A program made the position numbers and the translations under genes. From the IMG/VR virus record IMGVR_UViG_2648501400_000018: 32,660 nt of DNA. One strand, 5' to 3'. This DNA comes from a virus. Its lineage: Duplodnaviria; Heunggongvirae; Uroviricota; Caudoviricetes. Below the pieces are notes generated by a model. That model worked only from the letters and a program-made list of their open reading frames with translations. It was not told the origin of the DNA and made no database searches. This document shows, piece after piece, positions 20 to 32,660 of the stretch; within the stretch, counting starts at the first letter, position 1, and the number at the start of each line of letters is the position of its first letter.

Positions 20-427
20 TCACTTCCGGGGTGATTTTACTGCTTCAGGTTCATCAATGATAGAGAATAATGGGAGCTGTCGGCGGGCGCTTTCAGAACG
101 CTGGATCTTTTTCACCACTTTGTAGATCCACTGCAAAGTCAGGTTGTACTTCTTCGCCAGTTCGCGGTAGTTGCGTCCATCACACTCCTGCCAGATTTTA
201 TAGTCCCGCGCCGATGTCATGAAGACCATGCCTTTGGGCAGGTAAATGGTTTGTCCGCCCCATGCCTGCATCATGTGATTAGCCACAGCGACGGCAATCT
301 GTTCAGCGATATCATCTTCCATTCCAACCATTTCTTTCAATGTGTTTGCGACGTGGTGCGCAAGGTCAGCAAAGATTTCTGGCTGTTGCGGTTCTTTCAT
401 CTTCCCCTCCCGACACGCGCCAGCCAT
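20..427 (-). CDS. mor: Mor/C-family late-transcription activator
   Basis: 135 aa ORF; small basic protein with C-terminal HTH-like region (NLTLQWIYKVVKKIQ); lies directly downstream of the gemA-like gene as in Mu. Confidence 0.55.
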   Translation of the reverse strand: MAGACREGKMKEPQQPEIFADLAHHVANTLKEMVGMEDDIAEQIAVAVANHMMQAWGGQTIYLPKGMVFMTSARDYKIWQECDGRNYRELAKKYNLTLQWIYKVVKKIQRSESARRQLPLFSIIDEPEAVKSPRK

Positions 428-2423: not shown

Positions 2424-3548
2424 TCACACTCCTTTAATCACATCCGCATTCACCACCGGCACGCCGATATCAGCGGCCAGATTCATTGCGGCGATAACCA
2501 GATTCCCCAGCGCCAGCGGATAAAGCAGACTGACGTCACCGCGTCGGGATGAATTACATAATCGGGCGCGGATAGCATCGGCGGTGCTATCATCCAGCAC
2601 CTCGGAAACACCTTTCCCGGTACGCTGAAATTTGAACGCCAGAAACGCTTCCAGATAGTTATCCAGCGGCAGCAGTTCGACGACCTCGCAGCGCTGTACC
2701 ACTTCGCGCACCTCCTGATTACGTTCAGAAAGTTTCAGCTTTAGCTCCGGCTGGCCAATCAACACCACCGACAGCAGTTTTTTAAAGCCGTCCTCCAGCT
2801 CAAAGAACCGCTTCAAATGCTTGAGCGTCGGCACCGGTAGCGAGTGCGCCTCTTCAATAACCAGACAATGTGAGAACCCGGCGCGGGCCGACTCTTTCAG
2901 CACCCGGTGCAACTGGCGGTAACGGGCCTCCTGCGAGCGTTTGACGTTCTCCAGCGGTGCGATGGTGTTGATGATGGCCTCGGCAATCGACGCCGCTTTC
3001 AGAGTTTTGCCTTTGGCGTCGTTGTCTTCCATCGCAATGATGTACGGTTCGATGAGGATAACTGGCGCGTTTTCACGGTTGATGCGATCAGCCAGGTCAC
3101 GGCGTAGCGTGGTTTTCCCTGCGCCGGATTCGCCAACTACGGCGATAAATCCGCCATGTCGCGCGGTCTGATACAGTGCTTCACGCACGTAGCGGATATC
3201 TGGCGTGGTGAACACGTCGTCCGCACTCTGCATAACCTCATCGGCGAACGGGTCGCGGAACAACCCAAAATGCTTCTTCGCCGCTGGATTTAATACCTGT
3301 TTTGCCAGTAACATATTTTCGTCCTCACTGGATGATGTACCGGTGCAGGCGGTGGCCGCCGTCTGCGCCTCCTTCAGTTCAATACCTTTTTCTGCAAAAA
3401 ATGTGCTGATGCGCTCCCGTAGTTCTTCTGTTTTCGGCCACAGGCCGTGATTAACCATCTGCGCGATAACCGCTGCGGAAACTCCGGTAGCCTGTGCTAC
3501 TGCTGCCTGAGTGATGCCACGCTGGCGCAACTGTTGTTTAATCTGCAT
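2424..3548 (-). CDS. MuB-like transposition ATPase (AAA+ with N-terminal HTH)
   Basis: 374 aa ORF; N-terminal HTH (ITQAAVAQATGVSAAVIAQMVN); Walker A GESGAGKT; sits immediately downstream of the transposase as B follows A in Mu. Confidence 0.7.
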   Translation of the reverse strand: MQIKQQLRQRGITQAAVAQATGVSAAVIAQMVNHGLWPKTEELRERISTFFAEKGIELKEAQTAATACTGTSSSEDENMLLAKQVLNPAAKKHFGLFRDPFADEVMQSADDVFTTPDIRYVREALYQTARHGGFIAVVGESGAGKTTLRRDLADRINRENAPVILIEPYIIAMEDNDAKGKTLKAASIAEAIINTIAPLENVKRSQEARYRQLHRVLKESARAGFSHCLVIEEAHSLPVPTLKHLKRFFELEDGFKKLLSVVLIGQPELKLKLSERNQEVREVVQRCEVVELLPLDNYLEAFLAFKFQRTGKGVSEVLDDSTADAIRARLCNSSRRGDVSLLYPLALGNLVIAAMNLAADIGVPVVNADVIKGV

Positions 3549-3557
3549 AACTCCCCC

Positions 3558-5312
3558 TTAACCGCCGACTACGTTCAGTTGCACTCGGGCGGTAAGCTGC
3601 TGCGCGGCGGCGTCCAGTTCTTCTTCCGCCACGCCTTCTGGCCAGCGTTTCACCAGTTCCTGATACAGTGCGACGTTCCATTCCGGCAACCGTGCTTTCA
3701 GCGCCTTCGCCGCCTCGACGTGAGTCAGACGCCGGGCTTCAACGCGTGGAGCGCGTACCGGGGAATCCTGACCACGACGCGGCAGGAACGCGGGCAGTTC
3801 GCTGTCGGTGATGGGTTTATACGGGTCAAGCCTGCCGCCGAACGGCAGCGCCTTCGCTTTACGCGCCGCAGCCGCGTCCGTCTCGTTATCTGTTCCGGTA
3901 ACAATCTGCTCAATCTGTTTAGCCGCAGTCTGCGCGGGTGTATCGGCGTGGCGCTTGTGATTCTGGCCCAGCACCGCCGCGCCTTCGGCAAAGCCGTATT
4001 CGTCCTTGCGGACTTCCTCCACCAGGTGAAAATACTCGTGGCCATCGTCACCGATGAGCACTACCTGCGCGGCATCGCTGCGCCACGGATTGCGGGTGAT
4101 CATCAGTTTTTCACCCACCATCACATCTGGCACGGTGGAGACGTCGTATTCCGTACCCTGAAACGACACGCGCAGCTTCGGCGTTATCTTGCGGCTTTCC
4201 GGCGCGGCAACAGCCAGTTCGCGGCAGACCTCCACCGATGGCGCTTTGATAAGCTGCTGCGCGGTGATGGTCATCCAGACGTTACTACGCGACTTGCCGT
4301 GGCGGGTGTGAATCGCGGTGGCGTTGAAGTGCTGCCGCCACAGGCGCGCTTTGGCGTTCAGTTCCTCCAGGCTGTGAACCGGCTGGAACTTCAGCCCCGG
4401 TTCAAAGCGGCGTTCGATAATGTCGCGCGCCTTTTCCACCTGCCCGGTGGCGCGGGCGTTGTGGGCTTTATGCGCCACCACGTCAATGCCCAGCGAACGA
4501 CAGAGGTTCTTCGTCATAGCGGCGGTGTTGGCCGAGCCGGGGTCGAGATACAACATATGCGGCACGCCGTGGAGCACATCCGCGCCGCCGCGCTCCTGCA
4601 TGGCATTGATGAGAACGGAACAGAGATTTTCGCCAGACTCCGCCCCCATCACGTATTCAACGTAGATCCAGCCGCTGGTATGGTCGGTCAGTTCATAGCT
4701 CCATACCCGGTCACTGGCGATACGTTGCAGGTTCTTCGGCTTGTTTTTGTAGAACGTCGCGCTGTCCATCACCTGTAACCCGCGCTGTCCGTTGCTGAGG
4801 TAGTACAGCGTGCAGAGCGAGGCGTCGATTTCCCAGACGTGATTGGGGTGCAGACTGGCAAGCTCCGTCACTGGCGCGGGCTGGCTGAGTTGATCCGGGT
4901 GCAGGCCGTAGCCACGCAGCGCCCGGATGATGGTGCTTTCTGACAATGGCACCCACTCGCCGCTTTCCTCATCCAGCCGCCCGGCGTCAATCTCGCCGTT
5001 GGCGCGTAACATCTCCACGGCATCAATGACGGAATACAGGCGCTTGCCGTTCTTACGGGTGGCTTCCGTCAGCGTAGCGGAAATCATCACCGCCTCATCG
5101 CGGGTCAGCGCGGTTTTTCCGGCGTCGGTGCGGCGCTTGCGTTTATCGGTCACGGCAACCTCCTTTATTCTGCGTAACAGCGTGGCGCGGGACAGGCCAA
5201 GTTCCGCGCAGGCGGCAGTGTAGATTGCGCCGCGTGCGCCATGCCCGGCCTGCCGTGCAGCCTGAGCAACAGCAACTAAGCGTTCGGTCATGACGGCGCT
5301 CATGGTCAGCAT
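3558..5312 (-). CDS. DDE transposase, MuA-like
   Basis: 584 aa ORF; N-terminal DNA-binding region; candidate DDE residues in HVWEIDAS, YLDPGSANTA and a downstream Glu (GQVEKA); followed by the B-like ATPase. Confidence 0.75.
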   Translation of the reverse strand: MLTMSAVMTERLVAVAQAARQAGHGARGAIYTAACAELGLSRATLLRRIKEVAVTDKRKRRTDAGKTALTRDEAVMISATLTEATRKNGKRLYSVIDAVEMLRANGEIDAGRLDEESGEWVPLSESTIIRALRGYGLHPDQLSQPAPVTELASLHPNHVWEIDASLCTLYYLSNGQRGLQVMDSATFYKNKPKNLQRIASDRVWSYELTDHTSGWIYVEYVMGAESGENLCSVLINAMQERGGADVLHGVPHMLYLDPGSANTAAMTKNLCRSLGIDVVAHKAHNARATGQVEKARDIIERRFEPGLKFQPVHSLEELNAKARLWRQHFNATAIHTRHGKSRSNVWMTITAQQLIKAPSVEVCRELAVAAPESRKITPKLRVSFQGTEYDVSTVPDVMVGEKLMITRNPWRSDAAQVVLIGDDGHEYFHLVEEVRKDEYGFAEGAAVLGQNHKRHADTPAQTAAKQIEQIVTGTDNETDAAAARKAKALPFGGRLDPYKPITDSELPAFLPRRGQDSPVRAPRVEARRLTHVEAAKALKARLPEWNVALYQELVKRWPEGVAEEELDAAAQQLTARVQLNVVGG

Positions 5313-8371: not shown

Positions 8372-8448
8372 ACATGTTGTAAACAAAACAAAAAAGCGTG
8401 CAGACAGCACGCATTTACTATCTAACTCTACTGAAGGTTTCAGATTCT

Positions 8449-9480
8449 ATGCCAGCAAATGAACCTGCAAATGCAATCGTTGTAAATCATGTGGTTATTC
8501 ACCTTTTAGATAAAGAGCCGCATGGGGTGACATCCTTACAGCTTAGCCCGGCAGAGAGTGGCGTCACCGCAGCATCACAACGCTTAATAGATGATATCTG
8601 TGGGAAATATGCAGGGCGAATGGGGAAAGGTTATGGCCATTTTGAAGATGACCCTGACAATTACCCGATGCAAACAATCGTATCAGACTATTTAGCTCAA
8701 GAGCATCCTGATGATTTTTACCGTAGCTCCTGTCGCATGATTCGTCATCTGGAATCTCGGATTCAAACAACACCACTCGCTACTGGTGGCTATGTTCTAT
8801 TCGCCCACATTACGATGAATCAACACGAGCATATTCTAGTTGCCATGTTAAGCCCCACGACGGGAACTGCGGTTAACGATGCCTTTGCTATCCAGGAAAG
8901 TGTCTACCTTGATATCGACAAGCTACGTGTGGCGGGGCGTATTGACATTACGTCCTGGCAATCAGGTGCCGAACGTTATATAAGTTTCCTGAAAGGGAGC
9001 AATGCTGTATCTGGTTACTTTAAGCAGTTCCTGGGCTGTAACGATGTTTTGATCGCCAAGCGTGAAACAGAGAAATTGCGGGATGCGTTGAAAGAGTTTG
9101 CGACTGAGCAAGGGCTTGACCCCGCACGTCGAGAGGCTTTTCTGCAAACGGCCCATGACCATTTGAAGCAACTGAGCAAAGATGGTGAGCCTGTAGATCT
9201 GACAACCTTTGTGAACGCAGTCTGGCCACAAGAACCAGAGCTGCTATCGACTAAGCTGGCCAACCAAGAACTGGAACTGTCGGATGGTTTTGTCCCAGAT
9301 GGACGCGTACTAAAAGGAATCATTTCCTTTAAAGGAAAGTCCAATCATTGGGAGCTAAAGTTTGATCGTGCTGGTCTTCAAGATGGTTCAATTGAGTATA
9401 ATCGTAATCAGGATGTAATCATTCTAAGGAATATTCCTGATAGCTTCAGAGAAGAGATACTGGATGAGGTTGAGGAGTGA
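8449..9480 (+). CDS. NdpA/YejK-like nucleoid-associated protein family homolog
   Basis: N-terminal VNHVVIHLL, central GRIDITSWQSGAERYISFLKG...FLG and C-terminal WELKFD...LRNIPDSFREEI match remembered motifs of E. coli YejK; start placed at internal ATG MPANEP by alignment. Confidence 0.6.
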   Translation: MPANEPANAIVVNHVVIHLLDKEPHGVTSLQLSPAESGVTAASQRLIDDICGKYAGRMGKGYGHFEDDPDNYPMQTIVSDYLAQEHPDDFYRSSCRMIRHLESRIQTTPLATGGYVLFAHITMNQHEHILVAMLSPTTGTAVNDAFAIQESVYLDIDKLRVAGRIDITSWQSGAERYISFLKGSNAVSGYFKQFLGCNDVLIAKRETEKLRDALKEFATEQGLDPARREAFLQTAHDHLKQLSKDGEPVDLTTFVNAVWPQEPELLSTKLANQELELSDGFVPDGRVLKGIISFKGKSNHWELKFDRAGLQDGSIEYNRNQDVIILRNIPDSFREEILDEVEE

Positions 9481-10685
9481 GTATCAGTTTTGAGCAACTG
9501 GTGGGATTGTACAGGCAGATTACTTTCGGTAACGATATGGCCGAAGGTACGCTGGTGCTTACCCCAGAATCCTGCGAGTTGCTCAACGCTTTGCTTGAGG
9601 ACACCGATACATATGGGATCTCTCTGGCACAAGGTGAAGTAGTGGCTGGCCAGCAGGTGTCGCTTTTTGTGAACGCACCAAAGACAAAGCTAGGTCTGCT
9701 ATGCCGTAATTTGGCGGCTTTGTTAAAGTCGCCAAAACACCAAAGCGAGGAACCTTCCCGCTACTACCTGATCGACAGCCAATTTTATAGTTCGGATGCG
9801 CCAACATCCGTAATTGAAAACTACCGCACTATCTTAACATTTCTGCGCCTGCTTAAAGAAAAGTCGGCATACTTTGATACCAGTGCATATGAATGCGTTT
9901 TTTTCCGTGCCGATGTATTTAAATTACCTATACGTTACAGTGCAGAAACCGTAGAAAATCTTGATAAAACGACACTCGATGAACTCATTCAGCAGTTTTC
10001 TGACGACACACACAAAGAGCAGAAACTCTCGCTTTTAATTGAAAGCATCCAGTTAATCGGCCAGGAAACGGAAAACAATAAAGTCTTTGAGTATGCACTG
10101 AAGAACATTGATAAATTAAAAGTTGAGTTCGATAAGGGTTATCGCCTCTTCACTTCTGGGTTCTCATACGAAAAGGTTCTGGATGAACTTAGAACCGCCA
10201 AAGTTGAAGAAATGGGACGTATCCATAAAGTCTTTTCAGATATCCAAAACCAGATACTGGGTATCCCAGTCGCAACCATTATCGTCGCGACACAAATCAA
10301 GAAAGCAAGTGGTGATGTCTATCAAACCATTATCAATAGAGCAGTTTTTTTAGGGGCCTTTGTTTTTGCTACGTTGGTTATGTTGACTTTGTTCAACCAG
10401 TTACAGACGTTAACTGCTATCAAAGAAGAACTTCGACATAAAAAGACTCAGGTTGATAAAAAATATGCATCAATAAAAAATGACATTGATAGTATCTTTT
10501 GCTCTGTACGTAAACGTCTTTGCCGTCAGGTTATTGCGTTCTGGTTTATTATTATGTTCCTTGTTGTCGCTATTATATCGACAGGATTAATTTACCTATA
10601 CTGCACATACCCTGAAACATGGAATATCTTGGTTACAAAAGTGATGTCATGGCGGCATCACTTGAGCAATAAGCCCACTCCTTAA
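9477..10685 (+). CDS. Membrane protein with two C-terminal transmembrane helices, translationally coupled to the NdpA-like gene
   Basis: GTG start overlaps the upstream stop (GTGA); about 270 aa soluble N-domain then AVFLGAFVFATLVMLTLF and VIAFWFIIMFLVVAIISTGLIYLY. Confidence 0.5.
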   Translation: MSISFEQLVGLYRQITFGNDMAEGTLVLTPESCELLNALLEDTDTYGISLAQGEVVAGQQVSLFVNAPKTKLGLLCRNLAALLKSPKHQSEEPSRYYLIDSQFYSSDAPTSVIENYRTILTFLRLLKEKSAYFDTSAYECVFFRADVFKLPIRYSAETVENLDKTTLDELIQQFSDDTHKEQKLSLLIESIQLIGQETENNKVFEYALKNIDKLKVEFDKGYRLFTSGFSYEKVLDELRTAKVEEMGRIHKVFSDIQNQILGIPVATIIVATQIKKASGDVYQTIINRAVFLGAFVFATLVMLTLFNQLQTLTAIKEELRHKKTQVDKKYASIKNDIDSIFCSVRKRLCRQVIAFWFIIMFLVVAIISTGLIYLYCTYPETWNILVTKVMSWRHHLSNKPTP

Positions 10686-28282: not shown

Positions 28283-28985
28283 GTTACCGCTTCAACCGCC
28301 GCTCGCCGGGGATGAACGCTTTACCCGGCTGGCAAATCTTGCCGCTGAACGCTTCGCACAACTCGATCTGACCGCGCTTCTGATTTATCTGGTGGATGCC
28401 ACGGCGCTGCCGTCGCTGGCAGAACAGTTCCACGTTCAGGGGCTGGAAGGCTGGCTGTTTGCCCGCGATGAGCGACAAAAGCGCGATCTGATCAAGCAGG
28501 CCATTGAGCTGCACCGCTATCGCGGTACGCCGTGGGCAGTGCGTCAGGTACTGAAGATTCTGGCGTTGGACGGCGATATCAGCGAGTGGTTTGAGTATGG
28601 CGGTAAGCCGTACTTTTTCCGCATGGATGTCACGCTTGAGACGCGCGGGCTGACTGAGGATGAATTTAACGCGCTGATTGTGCTGATCCATGAGTACAAG
28701 AACGTCCGCTCAAAGCTGGAGATGCTGACTATCTGGCTGATTAACCAGAGCCAGATCCCGGTTATCGCCAGTGCTGTTCAGGGCGGCGAGATTGCTACCG
28801 TTCTGCCGTGGATTGCGGAGAGCGTGAGTCAGTCGTCTGCGGTTTATCTGGCGACGGAGTGTTTGAGTGCAGAGGTGGTAACGGTGTTGCCTCCGCTGCA
28901 TGGCAATGTTGAGCAGACCAGCGTTATGAGTGTTGGAGCGGGCTGCTGGAGTATTGAGTTTGTCACTGTTTACCCGGAGGAGTAA
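28275..28985 (+). CDS. Tail protein I-like (baseplate)
   Basis: 236 aa ORF between the J-like gene and the tail fibre gene, overlapping both, as P2 gpI. Confidence 0.6.
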   Translation: MDKLPLQPPLAGDERFTRLANLAAERFAQLDLTALLIYLVDATALPSLAEQFHVQGLEGWLFARDERQKRDLIKQAIELHRYRGTPWAVRQVLKILALDGDISEWFEYGGKPYFFRMDVTLETRGLTEDEFNALIVLIHEYKNVRSKLEMLTIWLINQSQIPVIASAVQGGEIATVLPWIAESVSQSSAVYLATECLSAEVVTVLPPLHGNVEQTSVMSVGAGCWSIEFVTVYPEE

Positions 28986-30685
28986 TGGCGAGTGAATTTT
29001 TTACCATTTTAACCGCCGCTGGCCGCGCGAAGATTGCTGCGGCGCTGGCGGAACAAAAGCAGATAGTGCTGCAAACAATGGTCGTTGGCGACGGCGGCGG
29101 GCAGTATGCCGAACCGAAAGAGAGCCAGACAAAGGTGGTGCGTGAAGTCTGGCGCGGGTCACTGAATACGCTGAAAATCGCCCCGGAAAACCCGGCGTGG
29201 GTGATTGCCGAGGCGGTACTGCCGGAAGCGAAAGGCGGCTGGTATATCCGCGAGGTGGGATTGCTGGATATGGACGGCGTGCTGATTGCCATCGGCAAGT
29301 TCCCGGAAACCTATAAGCCGAAGCTGCCTGCCGGGGCCAGTAAGCAAATTGTGATCCGCGCTGTGATGGAAGTGACGAACGCGGCGGCGGTAACGCTGAT
29401 GGTTGATCCGTCGCTGGTGATGGCAACGGTAGATTATGTGGACTCCAGTATTGAAGAGCACGAAAGATCACATAATCACCCGGACGCAACGCTGACGCAG
29501 AAAGGCTTTACGCAGCTTAACAGCTCCACCAATAGCACGCTGGAAACGCAGGCAGCAACGCCGAAGGCGGTGAAGGCGGCGATGGATAAGGCGAATGAGG
29601 CACTGGAAAAAGCTGGGGCTGATAAAGCGCATAAACATCCGTGGGCCGATATTACCGGGGTGCCGGATGGGACAACGGCGCAGAAAGGGGTTGTGAAGCT
29701 TAATAGCTCAACGAACAGTACCAGTACGACGGAGGCTGCGACACCGAGTGCGGTTAAGGCGGCATATGACCTGGCGAATGGTAAGGCGGCGGGGAGCCAT
29801 AAACATGCCTGGGGCGATATTACCGGGGTACCGGATGGCACTACGGCGCAAAAAGGGATCGTAAAGCTCAACAGCGCGACGAACAGCACCAGTACTACCG
29901 AAGCGGCCACGCCCGGCGCAGTGAAGGCGGCGTATGACCTGGCGAACGGGAAAGCGGCTTCCAGCCATACTCACGCATGGAGTCAGATTACCGGCGTACC
30001 GGATGCAACTACAGCGCAAAAAGGGGTTGTGAAGCTTAATAGCGCGACGAACAGTACCAGTACGACTGAAGCCGCAACGCCGAGCGCGGTTAAGGCGGCG
30101 TATGACAAGGCGAATACAGCAATCTCCAGTTTTGCTCTTTTCACGTCGAATGGGACGTTTACGGTGCCAGTCGGGGTAACGAAAGTGATGGTGGAAATGA
30201 TTGGAGGTGGAGGTGGTGGCGGCGGCGGTGGTGTGGGTGGTGGTGAGCGAATTGGTTATCCGACAGCAGGTAAACCATCACTTTTTGTTCAAGGGATTGT
30301 TGCTGTGAACTCTGGACAAAATGTAACCGTCACAGTCGGCGGAGGCGGTGTTGGGGGATCATCAAAAGTAGATACTGGTGGTGGTTCGATGACCGGGAGT
30401 AATGGGTACGCCGGAGGAAACTCAATTTTCTTAACGCTCACTTCTGTTGGTGGTAGCGGCGGCGGCGGTGCATTGCCAGATTCTGGTCCTGGCAACGCAT
30501 TAAATGAGCCAGGTTCTGATTCAACGCATGGCTATGGCGGGGGGACTAAGTATAACTCGCAGAAAAATGCCGTAGGTTATGGTTCGAGTGGTGCGGCTGG
30601 TACCTCTAAAGGCGTCAGAACTGTTGAAGGGGACTCTACAGCAGGTGGCAATGGTGCTTCAGGTTTTGTCAGAATATGGTGGTAA
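28985..30685 (+). CDS. Tail fibre protein (P2 gpH-like N-terminus, internal tandem repeats, glycine-rich low-GC C-terminal domain)
   Basis: N-terminus (FFTILTAAGRAKIAAALA...VVGDGGG...VWRGSLN...WYIREVGLLDMDGVLIAIGKFPETYKP) matches the conserved gpH anchor domain; about four repeats of AQKG[VI]VKLNS[AS]TNSTSTTEAATP.AVKAAYD; poly-Gly C-terminus. Confidence 0.75.
   Translation: MASEFFTILTAAGRAKIAAALAEQKQIVLQTMVVGDGGGQYAEPKESQTKVVREVWRGSLNTLKIAPENPAWVIAEAVLPEAKGGWYIREVGLLDMDGVLIAIGKFPETYKPKLPAGASKQIVIRAVMEVTNAAAVTLMVDPSLVMATVDYVDSSIEEHERSHNHPDATLTQKGFTQLNSSTNSTLETQAATPKAVKAAMDKANEALEKAGADKAHKHPWADITGVPDGTTAQKGVVKLNSSTNSTSTTEAATPSAVKAAYDLANGKAAGSHKHAWGDITGVPDGTTAQKGIVKLNSATNSTSTTEAATPGAVKAAYDLANGKAASSHTHAWSQITGVPDATTAQKGVVKLNSATNSTSTTEAATPSAVKAAYDKANTAISSFALFTSNGTFTVPVGVTKVMVEMIGGGGGGGGGGVGGGERIGYPTAGKPSLFVQGIVAVNSGQNVTVTVGGGGVGGSSKVDTGGGSMTGSNGYAGGNSIFLTLTSVGGSGGGGALPDSGPGNALNEPGSDSTHGYGGGTKYNSQKNAVGYGSSGAAGTSKGVRTVEGDSTAGGNGASGFVRIWW
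29477..30118 (+). repeat. Tandem coding repeats (about 168-183 bp period, about 3.7 copies) inside the tail fibre gene
   Basis: Repeat units start at about residues 171, 232, 288 and 344 of the fibre protein; nucleotide-level near-identity is visible between units. Confidence 0.6.
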
Positions 30686-30688
30686 CAC

Positions 30689-31291
30689 ATGAAATATGCG
30701 TATTTTGAACCCTCATCAATGAAGGTTTTAGACTGGCTGGATACCGAACAATTATCCTTTGTTTTGCCTGACAGTGTTGTTTCGGTAACTGATGAGCAAT
30801 GGTGTTATCGTGATCGTGAATGCTGGGTCAATATTTCAACCACAGAAATCATCACAACACCTCCACCCGGTGATTTTTATCGGCTTGATGGTGATAAGTG
30901 GGTGTATGACGCAACCAGCTATACTGCTGCGCTAGACGGTGCTAAGTCACTAGTTGTTAAGGCAATCAAGGCGCTACGCGATGAAGTCACTGCCGATTAT
31001 ATCATTATCGGCGACTATCACTTTCACAGCGATGCCAGCAGTCGTATCCAGCAAATGTCACTCACCAGGATGGGGCAAACGAAGCAAATCCCCAAAGGCT
31101 TAATGTGGCAGACCAAAAACCTCGGACTTCTCGAGCTAACCAATGAAATCGCGGCGCAGTTTGAGTCCATTACAATGGATCACGATATGCGCCTCTTTGC
31201 CAATGCCCAGCGACATATTGCCGCCGTTGAGGCGCTGGAAGATATCCTGGCAGTTCAGGAGTATGACTACTCTACGGGGTGGCAACCATGA
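30689..31291 (+). CDS. Hypothetical protein downstream of tail fibre (possible fibre assembly/accessory protein)
   Basis: 200 aa ORF starting 4 nt after the fibre stop; AT-rich like the fibre C-terminus; no motif recognised. Confidence 0.3.
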   Translation: MKYAYFEPSSMKVLDWLDTEQLSFVLPDSVVSVTDEQWCYRDRECWVNISTTEIITTPPPGDFYRLDGDKWVYDATSYTAALDGAKSLVVKAIKALRDEVTADYIIIGDYHFHSDASSRIQQMSLTRMGQTKQIPKGLMWQTKNLGLLELTNEIAAQFESITMDHDMRLFANAQRHIAAVEALEDILAVQEYDYSTGWQP

Positions 31292-31740
31292 GGCCGGTGT
31301 ATCTGGCGTTCTATAAAGGGCGAGCCGATCATCATGGGTTCGCACGTCTTTCCGACTGGCTGACGCGGCTGGTGACGCGGGGTGAGTATTCTCACTGCGA
31401 GCTGGCTGTTGACCAGGGTAACGGCGAGTTTCTTTGTTATTCGTCGTCGGTGCGTGACAAGGGGGTGCGCTGTAAGCAAATGCCGCTGCCACTCGATAAA
31501 TGGGATCTTATCGCGCTAAATGCGCTACCAACCAGTGTGGAGCAGTTCTTCCGTCGAAACGACGCCATGAAATATGACTGGCTGGGGGCTGTGGGATTCG
31601 TTGTTTTTAATCGTGGACGGGAGAACAAATATTTCTGTAGCGAGTTTTGCGCAGATTTTCTTGGACTGGTCGATAGCTGGCGTTATTCACCCAATATGCT
31701 CCACGCGCTGGCCAGCAGTATTCAGACTATGAAGTTATAA
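31288..31740 (+). CDS. Hypothetical protein (Cys/His-containing, possibly enzymatic)
   Basis: Start placed at internal ATG giving an ATGA overlap with the upstream gene; motifs YSHCELAV and KYFCSEFCADF; function unknown. Confidence 0.3.
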   Translation: MRPVYLAFYKGRADHHGFARLSDWLTRLVTRGEYSHCELAVDQGNGEFLCYSSSVRDKGVRCKQMPLPLDKWDLIALNALPTSVEQFFRRNDAMKYDWLGAVGFVVFNRGRENKYFCSEFCADFLGLVDSWRYSPNMLHALASSIQTMKL

Positions 31741-31886
31741 GGGAAACAGCGACCAGAGTCAGGCGGTCACCTGACTCTGACCAGCTAACCCGCAGGAAGT
31801 GTCTGCGAGCCGCCCAGGGCTGCCACTGATGGCCATCAGTCCAATAAGCCTAACAGTTTTTCACATACTGAAAAAGGTTTGCAGAA

Positions 31887-32660
31887 ATGAAAACATTACC
31901 CATTATTCCGTGGCCCGGCGGTAAGCGTCGTCTGGCCAAAAAGTTATTACCGTTATTTCCTGAGCACCAGTGTTATGTAGAGCCATTCTGCGGCGGTGCA
32001 GCCTTGTATTTCATGAAGGAGCCGGTTGAAGCTGAAGTCCTGAACGATATCAACGGCGAACTGGTGAATCTGTACCGTGTGGTTAAAAATCATCTTGAAG
32101 AGTTTGTGCGCCAGTTCAAGTGGGCGTTGAGCAGCAGGCAGATTTTTGAATGGTCGAAAATGACCATCCCGGAGACGCTAACTGATATTCAGCGTGCAGC
32201 GCGGTTTTATTATCTCCAGAAGCAATCATTCGGAGGGAAAGTGGAATCACAGACGTATGGAACGGCGACCACTTCTGCACCACGGCTTAATCTGCTAAGG
32301 CTGGAAGAGGAGTTGAGCGCCGCCCATTTGCGGCTATCACGCACGTTTGTAGAACATTTACCGTGGCGTACCTGCATTGAGAAGTATGATCGCCCGCACA
32401 CACTGTTCTATTGCGATCCCCCGTATTGGGGAACGGAGGGCTACGGTGTTGAATTTGGACTGGAGCAGTACACCCAACTTGCAGAGTTGGCCAGAACGAT
32501 AAAAGGCAGGATGTTGATCAGTGTGAACGATATCCCGGAGATGCGTGAAACCTTTGCGGACTTGTCGATTGATACGGTAGATATTCGCTATACGTTGAGC
32601 GGTGGGCCTAATGCTAATCGCTCGAAAGTCAGCCGTGAGCTGGTCATTCGTAACTGGTAA
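31887..32660 (+). CDS. Dam-family (D12-class) N6-adenine DNA methyltransferase
   Basis: N-terminal SAM-binding pattern PGGKRRL...CYVEPFCGGAALYF; catalytic DPPY in LFYCDPPYWG; C-terminal RMLISVND; arrangement parallels E. coli Dam. Confidence 0.75.
   Translation: MKTLPIIPWPGGKRRLAKKLLPLFPEHQCYVEPFCGGAALYFMKEPVEAEVLNDINGELVNLYRVVKNHLEEFVRQFKWALSSRQIFEWSKMTIPETLTDIQRAARFYYLQKQSFGGKVESQTYGTATTSAPRLNLLRLEEELSAAHLRLSRTFVEHLPWRTCIEKYDRPHTLFYCDPPYWGTEGYGVEFGLEQYTQLAELARTIKGRMLISVNDIPEMRETFADLSIDTVDIRYTLSGGPNANRSKVSRELVIRNW

Follow-up and report, generated by a model that had tools for sequence, protein, structure and literature searches.

In bacteriophage Mu, com-mom is the last late unit before the right end, and the Mom modification is an acetamido/carbamoyl modification of adenine. 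That a methylase can replace mom in Mu-like phages is already established (B3; FluMu, Pnm1, Hia5). In the Pseudomonas Mu-like phage B3, the "Dam modification methylase" ORF48 takes Mom's place, with a Com homologue encoded as ORF47 (Braid et al., 2004, cited in PMC3299994), and in Mu-like prophages of Haemophilus and Neisseria the mom slot is held by Hia5, Hin1523 and Nma1821, which are nearly non-specific methyltransferases producing N6-methyladenine (m6A; PMC3299994). Here we consider the last gene of a 32,660-nucleotide stretch of Caudoviricetes DNA (IMG/VR record IMGVR_UViG_2648501400_000018; the whole stretch is hereafter called the window), which encodes a DNA methyltransferase (MTase) of a kind that is routinely annotated at the protein level. 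We propose, with a probability of about 0.7, that this gene encodes a stand-alone MTase of the B3-ORF48 type and is the terminal late gene of an E. coli Mu-like transposable prophage, that it replaced com-mom by a cassette swap, and that it serves late methylation of the phage's own DNA against restriction.

Compared with these described systems, the closest counterpart is B3 ORF48, which shares with the window MTase 66% identity over the full length, a D12 domain, the conserved motif of the putative DNA-reading hairpin and residence in a transposable Mu-like phage. The two loci differ in layout, as the B3 gene is preceded and overlapped by the Com gene and lies inside the tail cluster before the tape-measure gene, whereas the window gene has no Com and is the terminal gene beside the right end. 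The Hia5 group resembles the window MTase in its mom slot at the right end, its orphan status, its D12 superfamily and its FxGxG and DPPY motifs, but it is a different subfamily, coupled to Com and highly divergent in its target-recognition region. Mu com-mom occupies the same slot (it is allelic to the MTase in a prophage of Escherichia coli A35), has a common upstream control region, is likewise the last late gene unit before the right end, and has the same presumed purpose of shielding phage DNA from restriction; Mom itself, however, falls within the acyltransferase superfamily (PMC3299994), unrelated in fold and chemistry to a Rossmann-fold methyltransferase using S-adenosylmethionine (AdoMet), and the Com gate is missing here. 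E. coli Dam (EcoDam), T4 Dam and DpnM agree with the window MTase in fold, motif order and catalytic motifs, and Dam is also an orphan, but these GATC enzymes are about 22-27% identical to it and their residues K9, L122, R124 and P134 are not conserved. Finally, M.EcoGII of E. coli O104:H4 is a non-specific, beta-class adenine MTase that is silent in the lysogen (PMC7544214); it too is a prophage-encoded orphan of E. coli, but its motif order and family are other than those of the alpha-class (D12) window enzyme, and it was rejected as a relative.

The gene and the protein parts referred to below are:

31887..32660, + strand: orphan alpha-class (D12/Dam-fold) N6-adenine DNA methyltransferase coding sequence, B3-ORF48 subfamily (from the open reading frame, family matches, identity to B3 ORF48, conserved motifs and Dam fold)
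Residues 33-39: motif I, P33-F-C-G-G-A-A, including F34-C-G-G37 (from family alignments)
Residues about 113-134: putative DNA-reading hairpin FGGKVESQTYGTATTSAPRLN, between motif I and DPPY (from family alignments)
Residues 177-180: motif IV, D177-P-P-Y180 (from family alignments)

The open reading frame (ORF) is intact and runs on the + strand from the ATG at 31887 to the TAA at 32658-32660, which forms the final three bases of the window, for a product of 257 amino acids. It matches the whole length of the D12-class N6-adenine DNA MTase domain of Pfam (PF02086, E = 1.5e-28, 100.7 bits against a cutoff of 22, profile positions 1-251 of 253) and the "DNA methyltransferase" family phrog_56 (E = 4.7e-97). 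The clear D12-class motifs FCGGAA and DPPY reported in the initial annotation are present at residues 33-39 and 177-180, FCGG and DPPY being invariant throughout the family alignments, and their order (motif I FxGxG, target-recognition region, then motif IV DPPY) is that of the alpha class. An AlphaFold model (predicted template modelling score 0.71, mean predicted local distance difference test score [pLDDT] 71.8) had EcoDam, DpnM and T4 Dam as its best Foldseek matches (E = 3.5e-16; TM about 0.7 to EcoDam and DpnM), and by sequence the nearest solved structures were again DpnM and EcoDam, at about 60 bits each. The "Dam-family" label given earlier therefore stands for fold and motifs, with the NCBI Dam subfamily TIGR00571 barely passed (116.5 bits against a cutoff of 114.85), but not as a statement of GATC specificity, since the EcoDam equivalog model NF008152 fails (70.9 bits against a cutoff of 441) and the GATC-reading residues are replaced. 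On 218 contigs the identical protein bears the name "DNA adenine methylase [Escherichia coli]"; Salmonella enterica and E. albertii have near-identical copies. Family matches and the predicted fold together confirm the assignment as an apparently intact D12/Dam-fold N6-adenine DNA methyltransferase, and the FxGxG and DPPY motifs suggest that it flips out adenines and methylates them at N6 with AdoMet.

The slot occupied by this gene is best seen in E. coli genomes. When the last 2 kb of the window were compared with complete E. coli genomes by megablast, two prophages lost homology to the window at about 31890. In E. coli A35 (NZ_CP028740.1) the gene order is tail protein I, tail fibre, DUF4376, a hypothetical gene, a Com-family regulator, a Mom-family protein and host grxA, and the prophage ends in the same right terminus as that of the window. 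Local BLASTN between the two placed the end of homology at the base just before the MTase ATG: positions 31741-31886 are nearly identical up to ...GGTTTGCAGAA, after which the window continues with the MTase ATG and A35 with the com leader. Over the last 1,024 bp before the ATG the two are 85.4% identical, and across 5 kb of more upstream tail genes the figure is 91.5%. Because A35 holds com-mom in the same slot and DNA homology stops at the MTase ATG, the MTase and com-mom appear, from the alignments, as a clean cassette exchange behind a common mom-type control region. The guanine-plus-cytosine content of the MTase cassette (49.7%) and of the A35 com-mom cassette (45.5%), lower than that of the window (55.0%), fits both being imported modules. 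The start that RefSeq assigns to the "Com family" coding sequence of A35 (L001:6854-7111, 85 amino acids) is probably placed too far upstream; the first ~20 codons fall within the promoter and leader DNA common to the window, and the zinc finger begins MHVRCTQC.

The gene directly upstream marks the slot:

31279..31740, + strand: conserved upstream neighbour phrog_1128, 153 amino acids, also found before com-mom in A35 and before com-MTase in Haemophilus phage SuMu

In SuMu the order is tail fibre, assembly protein, phrog_1128 protein, Com and a D12-superfamily MTase. The earlier proposal that the MTase sits where Mu has mom is thus borne out by com-mom in the identical slot of A35 and by the similar gene order of SuMu. 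The relation to Mom is positional only, as the window MTase matched only D12 MTase models in Pfam, NCBI and PHROG searches. The label of phrog_1128, "enoyl-CoA hydratase/carnithine racemase-like", is doubtful: the protein had no Pfam match and carries YSHCE and FCSEFC motifs.

The MTase gene is also the last one of the prophage. Three genomes with an identical MTase agree exactly over ~85 nt beyond the stop, as far as ...ATTTATCGCGCGCGGCTTTA, where the common sequence gives way to three unrelated host flanks (an ABC transporter; a truncated CitMHS beside nagE; DUF1097 near the all genes), and this right terminus aligns with the Mu right end ...TTTTCGTGCGCCGCTTCA. The MTase is thus the last gene before a Mu-type attR. 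Since the phage ends ~85 nt after the stop in three differing host neighbourhoods, there is no space for a downstream nuclease. The lack of an endonuclease partner in the window, noted in the initial annotation, held up: no restriction-endonuclease-like ORF turned up among the window ORFs screened, and none of those lacking a Pfam assignment matched a nuclease or defence-system model. The search for a cognate nuclease up- and downstream, which had been suggested as a check, was extended to related loci. From 80 related MTase loci, surveyed in species-representative genomes, 6 duplicate copies from Methylophaga were set aside, and a downstream ORF could be called in 70 of the remaining 74. Among the ORFs lying nearest downstream in these 70 there was no recurrent Pfam family and no restriction endonuclease; they were mostly unrelated host genes (e.g., DNA polymerase III alpha, aminotransferase, YaeQ, semialdehyde dehydrogenase), a variety that is the pattern expected of a terminal gene on a randomly inserting element.

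The DNA in front of the MTase, together with a candidate activator gene at the other end of the window, contains the following features:

31741..31886, + strand: intergenic control region, common to the A35 com-mom prophage up to the base before the ATG; putative mom-type, activator-dependent late promoter and leader
31754..31779, + strand: stable hairpin with a 10-bp stem and a 6-nt loop, directly after the stop of the upstream gene, without a U-tract
31826..31839, no strand assigned: perfect 14-bp palindrome CTGATGGCCATCAG, identical in A35 and the only perfect copy in the window
31857-31861, + strand: run of five T (T5), aligned with Mu GTTTTTTAAGATAGTG upstream of com
31862-31869, + strand: weak -10 candidates CACATA/CATACT, aligned with the Mu region upstream of com
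31874-31877, + strand: Shine-Dalgarno-like AAGG, 9 nt before the ATG (from the sequence)
23..427, - strand: Mor/C-family transcription activator gene (PF08765 Mor, 1.7e-39, 134.5 bits)

The control region aligns partially with Mu DNA upstream of com, and the palindrome falls at the place of the TTAT-N6-ATAA element of Mu, which we take to be bound by the late activator C at Pmom. By analogy, CTGATGGCCATCAG is a candidate operator for a Mor/C-type late activator of the phage, and the product of the Mor/C-family gene at 23-427 is likely the trans-activator of the late promoters, including that of the MTase. A palindrome regulon for this activator was considered and dropped, as no convincing further sites were found in the window. 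No sigma-70-like promoter was found between 31500 and 32660. The hairpin at 31754-31779 folds with a deltaG of -20.6 kcal/mol (z-score -3.62; 0 of 200 shuffles fold equally well) and is found in A35 with one mismatch; it is possibly an insulator, terminator-like or RNA-stability element between the tail-fibre operon and the mom-slot unit. The translation start of the MTase is, by comparison, unstructured (RNA 31860-31930, z-score +0.85, no sequestering structure), and no Com-like ORF was found upstream of it. The translational gate by Com appears to be missing here because both the Com-like ORF and the start-region structure are lacking.

These elements suggest the following course of events. 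In lytic growth, the Mor/C-family activator would turn on the weak promoter upstream of the MTase, and the resulting mRNA would be translated without a Com gate, as far as can be told from the absence of com and the unstructured start region. The enzyme would then flip adenines and transfer methyl groups from AdoMet through its FxGxG and DPPY motifs, as its family membership predicts, and replicating phage DNA would be methylated before packaging, so that progeny might resist adenine-methylation-sensitive restriction in the next host. This last step, suggested by gene position and by precedent, would be Mom's job done by a different chemistry. Position and precedent taken by analogy would allow either an anti-restriction or an epigenetic role for the MTase; we favour anti-restriction over epigenetics of the lysogen because of the placement behind a late promoter.

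Broadly, the METHYLTRANSFERASE of the window belongs to a very large and tight subfamily, with 7810 of 8000 scored candidates at E <= 1e-5 and the best matches, 72-77% identical, in Beta- and Gammaproteobacteria. Phage relatives include MuM16-1 p50 (near the right end) of Shewanella, phiE125 gp27 and phi1026b gp26 of Burkholderia and the Dam of Vibrio phage VP882, which with others are 61-72% identical to the window MTase, and in database names the enzyme is called Dam or DpnIIA. By this descent the window enzyme is placed in the B3-ORF48 lineage, which makes it a third separate occupant of the mom slot beside Mom and the Hia5 group. Membership of the Hia5 subfamily was itself rejected: the window MTase had no pairwise similarity to SuMu_53 (E = 0.39), a protein that barely reaches the D12 threshold (23.2 vs. 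22) and that we presume to be Hia5-type on the strength of its size, the position of DPPY, its coupling to Com and its host family (the SuMu paper itself makes no such assignment), and B3 ORF48 is not among the 1000 closest relatives of Hia5 (PMC3299994).

Within the 80-locus survey, many subfamily hosts were Betaproteobacteria, and a Com zinc-finger ORF (IRCGxCxRKLA...IKCPRCxTLN) lay directly upstream of the MTase in 26 loci, none of them in Enterobacterales, where Com-less copies are widespread. The window MTase holds the mom-slot position with com absent, yet com is found upstream in about a third of the surveyed loci of its subfamily. Gene placement also varied: about nine further loci have the MTase after baseplate and fibre genes, like the window, two loci have tail-sheath genes downstream, and about 15 Enterobacterales loci of the same phage lineage (TerL, portal and gp27 71-88% identical to those of the window; TnpA 48-82%) carry it centrally, between the transposase and head modules. 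Two groups in the survey stood out for other reasons. At least seven contigs of Methylophaga thiooxydans DMS010 (L070, L072, L074, L076, L079, L080, L085) each bear a near-identical com and MTase pair, which suggests a multi-copy transposable phage or repeat-collapsed assembly ends, and four Photorhabdus loci (L047, L051, L052, L054) have a subfamily MTase of 68-70% identity in a related Mu-like prophage.

The principal question for the function of the enzyme is what DNA sequence it reads. In EcoDam-DNA structures, the contact of R124 with Gua4 is the first and most critical one, and the R124A mutant no longer discriminates at the fourth base pair. Of the other residues, L122 and P134 recognize the third pair, K9 and Y138 handle the first, N120 forms a hydrogen bond with a base, and Y119 intercalates (PMC4417163). 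When EcoDam and the window MTase were aligned by HMMER, MAFFT and HHalign, all three placed R124 at E120, L122 at K118, N120 at G116, Y119 at F115 and K9 at P8, and P134 fell at S130 (MAFFT) or T123 (HHalign); among these contacts only Y119 to F115 stays aromatic. The E120 column varies between E, D, S and N within the subfamily, and HHalign suggests that the hairpin is maybe about 7 residues shorter than that of EcoDam. Instead, the subfamily has a hairpin motif of its own, F-G-G-K-V-x-x-Q-T-F/Y-G-T-A-T-T-S-x-P-R-L-N, which is strongly conserved among 65-77%-identical homologues. The AlphaFold model adds nothing on recognition, its pLDDT being below 50 for residues 1-8 and 113-134. Because the GATC-contacting hairpin and N-terminal residues are replaced by a different, subfamily-conserved motif, the window MTase probably does not read GATC in the manner of EcoDam, and we infer an enzyme that is catalytically intact but reads DNA otherwise.

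Among other explanations, a true GATC-specific Dam fares best, although we consider it unlikely. Such an enzyme would top up GATC methylation on fast-replicating phage DNA and so protect it against MboI/DpnII-type restriction or MutH nicking, or tune Dam-sensitive phage promoters, rather than act as a broad anti-restriction function. The TIGR00571 cutoff, the GATC specificity of all the closest solved structures and the database names Dam or DpnIIA all speak for it, as does the number of betaproteobacterial hosts, where a GATC enzyme would add something new; to our knowledge, host Dam is generally absent in Betaproteobacteria. Set against this are the alignment of the critical R124 with a variable acidic or polar column and the replacement of K9, L122 and P134, together with the wide failure of NF008152. 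A GATC methylase would moreover bring little gain in a Dam-positive E. coli and make an odd substitute for mom, and Com-type gating in a third of loci hints that the product does more harm than a GATC methylase would.

Motif counts were rejected as a clue to specificity, being uninformative about the MTase: GATC is under-represented in the window (94 vs. 124.9±9.9 in shuffles) and TGGCCA is not enriched (18 vs. 11.8±3.7 expected, 4 of the 18 sites in the last 1 kb). TGGCCA, proposed as the target of REBASE-predicted alpha-MTases in the Chania paper, was dropped since the group representative F116p11 is just 29% identical to the window MTase. The lead was attractive as the core of the upstream palindrome, but that palindrome is likewise present in the com-mom sister A35. 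In Photorhabdus luminescens TT01, a fully methylated TGGCC(m6A) motif is without an assigned enzyme, and the solitary D12-class prophage MTase plu3449 (gene of 771 bp) is without an assigned specificity (PMC6092372). The prophage Dams of an O111 Shiga toxin-producing E. coli methylome were also discarded, being members of other GATC families, those of lambdoid phages.

A relaxed or nearly non-specific adenine methyltransferase, doing a Mom-like job as Hia5 and Hin1523 do and blocking many restriction enzymes at once, is in our view improbable. It would share its slot with Mom and the Hia5-type enzymes, and both the missing GATC-reading residues and the coupling to Com in 26 of the 80 loci and in B3 would suit it, Com gating being associated with a harmful product in the case of Mom. 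But the MTase shows no detectable resemblance to SuMu_53, the presumed Hia5-type protein, B3 ORF48 reportedly falls outside the Hia5 family, the strong conservation of the hairpin is more in keeping with a defined than with a degenerate recognition element, and Com-less copies are widespread in Enterobacterales. A further proposal is that the B3-ORF48 subfamily was recruited independently as a third mom-analogue, that its adenine specificity is new or strongly relaxed, that its own hairpin FGGKVxxQTFGTATTSxPRLN would read the target, and that its product would be harmful enough for a third of carriers to gate it with Com. We offer this as an unlikely speculation; if true, a family found very widely, in hundreds of species-level genomes, would be a methylase of broad anti-restriction function and might join Hia5 and M.EcoGII as a new footprinting enzyme.

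It is very unlikely that the gene is instead a lysogenic-conversion ("moron") epigenetic regulator that methylates host DNA and alters host expression. Orphan methyltransferases can be regulators, and the about 15 sibling phages have the gene centrally, near immunity and early genes; in the window, however, the late genes end with it, and the control region in front of it is mom-type and sigma-70-poor. A methylome study of E. coli describes Dam-like orphan MTases of prophages, their specificity unknown, as well as MTases found silent in the growth conditions used, and solitary prophage MTases of Photorhabdus, including the D12-class plu3449, were expressed at <0.001-fold of gyrB (PMC6092372). 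We regard an epigenetic regulator as less likely because of this late activator-type control region and the reported silence of prophage Dam-like orphans in lysogens. That the MTase is the methylase half of a restriction-modification system, with its nuclease encoded elsewhere, beyond the window or in the prophage's left part, is scarcely credible, since the label "Type II methyltransferase" of the best PADLOC model and a left prophage end that lies outside the window stand against a phage end ~85 nt downstream, the absence of any nuclease family among the 70 downstream neighbours or the unassigned ORFs of the window, and an alternative occupant of the slot, com-mom, that is a nuclease-free system.

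Several points nevertheless weigh against a late, self-methylating mom substitute. The central position of the MTase in the about 15 siblings means that the gene is not intrinsically bound to the mom slot. Promoter and operator are assigned by analogy, and relaxed searches of the window for second sites of the palindrome were noisy and gave none that was convincing. The alignment to the EcoDam hairpin is of low confidence in a region of pLDDT <50, and GATC may be read through other contacts; the TIGR00571 Dam-subfamily cutoff was also passed, though barely. In the literature reached, we found no activity, target or expression data for the MTase or its close relatives, and no experimental report of a target sequence for the subfamily; as of 2011, B3 ORF48 itself had an activity "yet to be demonstrated" (Drozdz et al., PMC3299994).

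The two sister E. coli prophages, with the same control region and right end, offer a clean natural case of modular exchange at the mom locus, in which the exchanged cassettes are chemically unrelated DNA-modification modules joined exactly at the start codon. The gene points as well to a large, conserved, phage-borne Dam-fold subfamily that is often Com-coupled and is without the GATC-reading residues of EcoDam. Should its specificity be new or relaxed, this would be of importance to the biology of phage-host restriction, and a tool for methylation footprinting might come of it.

The remainder of the window agrees with such a setting. Its Mu-like hallmarks comprise an rve transposase, an AAA+ helper (AAA_22), DUF3164, GemA, Mor and Mu Gp27, three of which are placed as follows:

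451-801, - strand: GemA, adjoining the Mor-family gene
2427-3548, - strand: AAA+ helper ATPase (Pfam)
3561-5312, - strand: rve-type DDE transposase (Pfam)

The window also encodes a holin, an SLT lysozyme, an Rz-like spanin, a large terminase and a P2/Mu-type baseplate and tail-fibre module. The DDE transposase, ATPase helper, Mor/C activator, Mu-type termini and variable insertion sites together identify, by sequence criteria, a Mu-like transposable prophage.

Two other regions of this prophage deserve mention. Between the early and late modules, 8398-10685 on the + strand encodes a homologue of the 37-kD nucleoid-associated protein (NA37, 250 bits) followed by a 402-amino-acid phrog_5023 protein, and the about 15 Enterobacterales siblings have the MTase in this general region instead. 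The tail-fibre ORF (28985-30685, + strand, 566 amino acids) contains 3-4 tandem protein repeats (about ...DITGVPDGTTAQKGVVKLNSxTNSTSTTEAATPSAVKAAYDLANGKA..., with DNA self-matches 75-86% identical) and, after them, a glycine-rich C-terminal part, the latter being the sole segment of the right arm that is not conserved with the A35 sister prophage.

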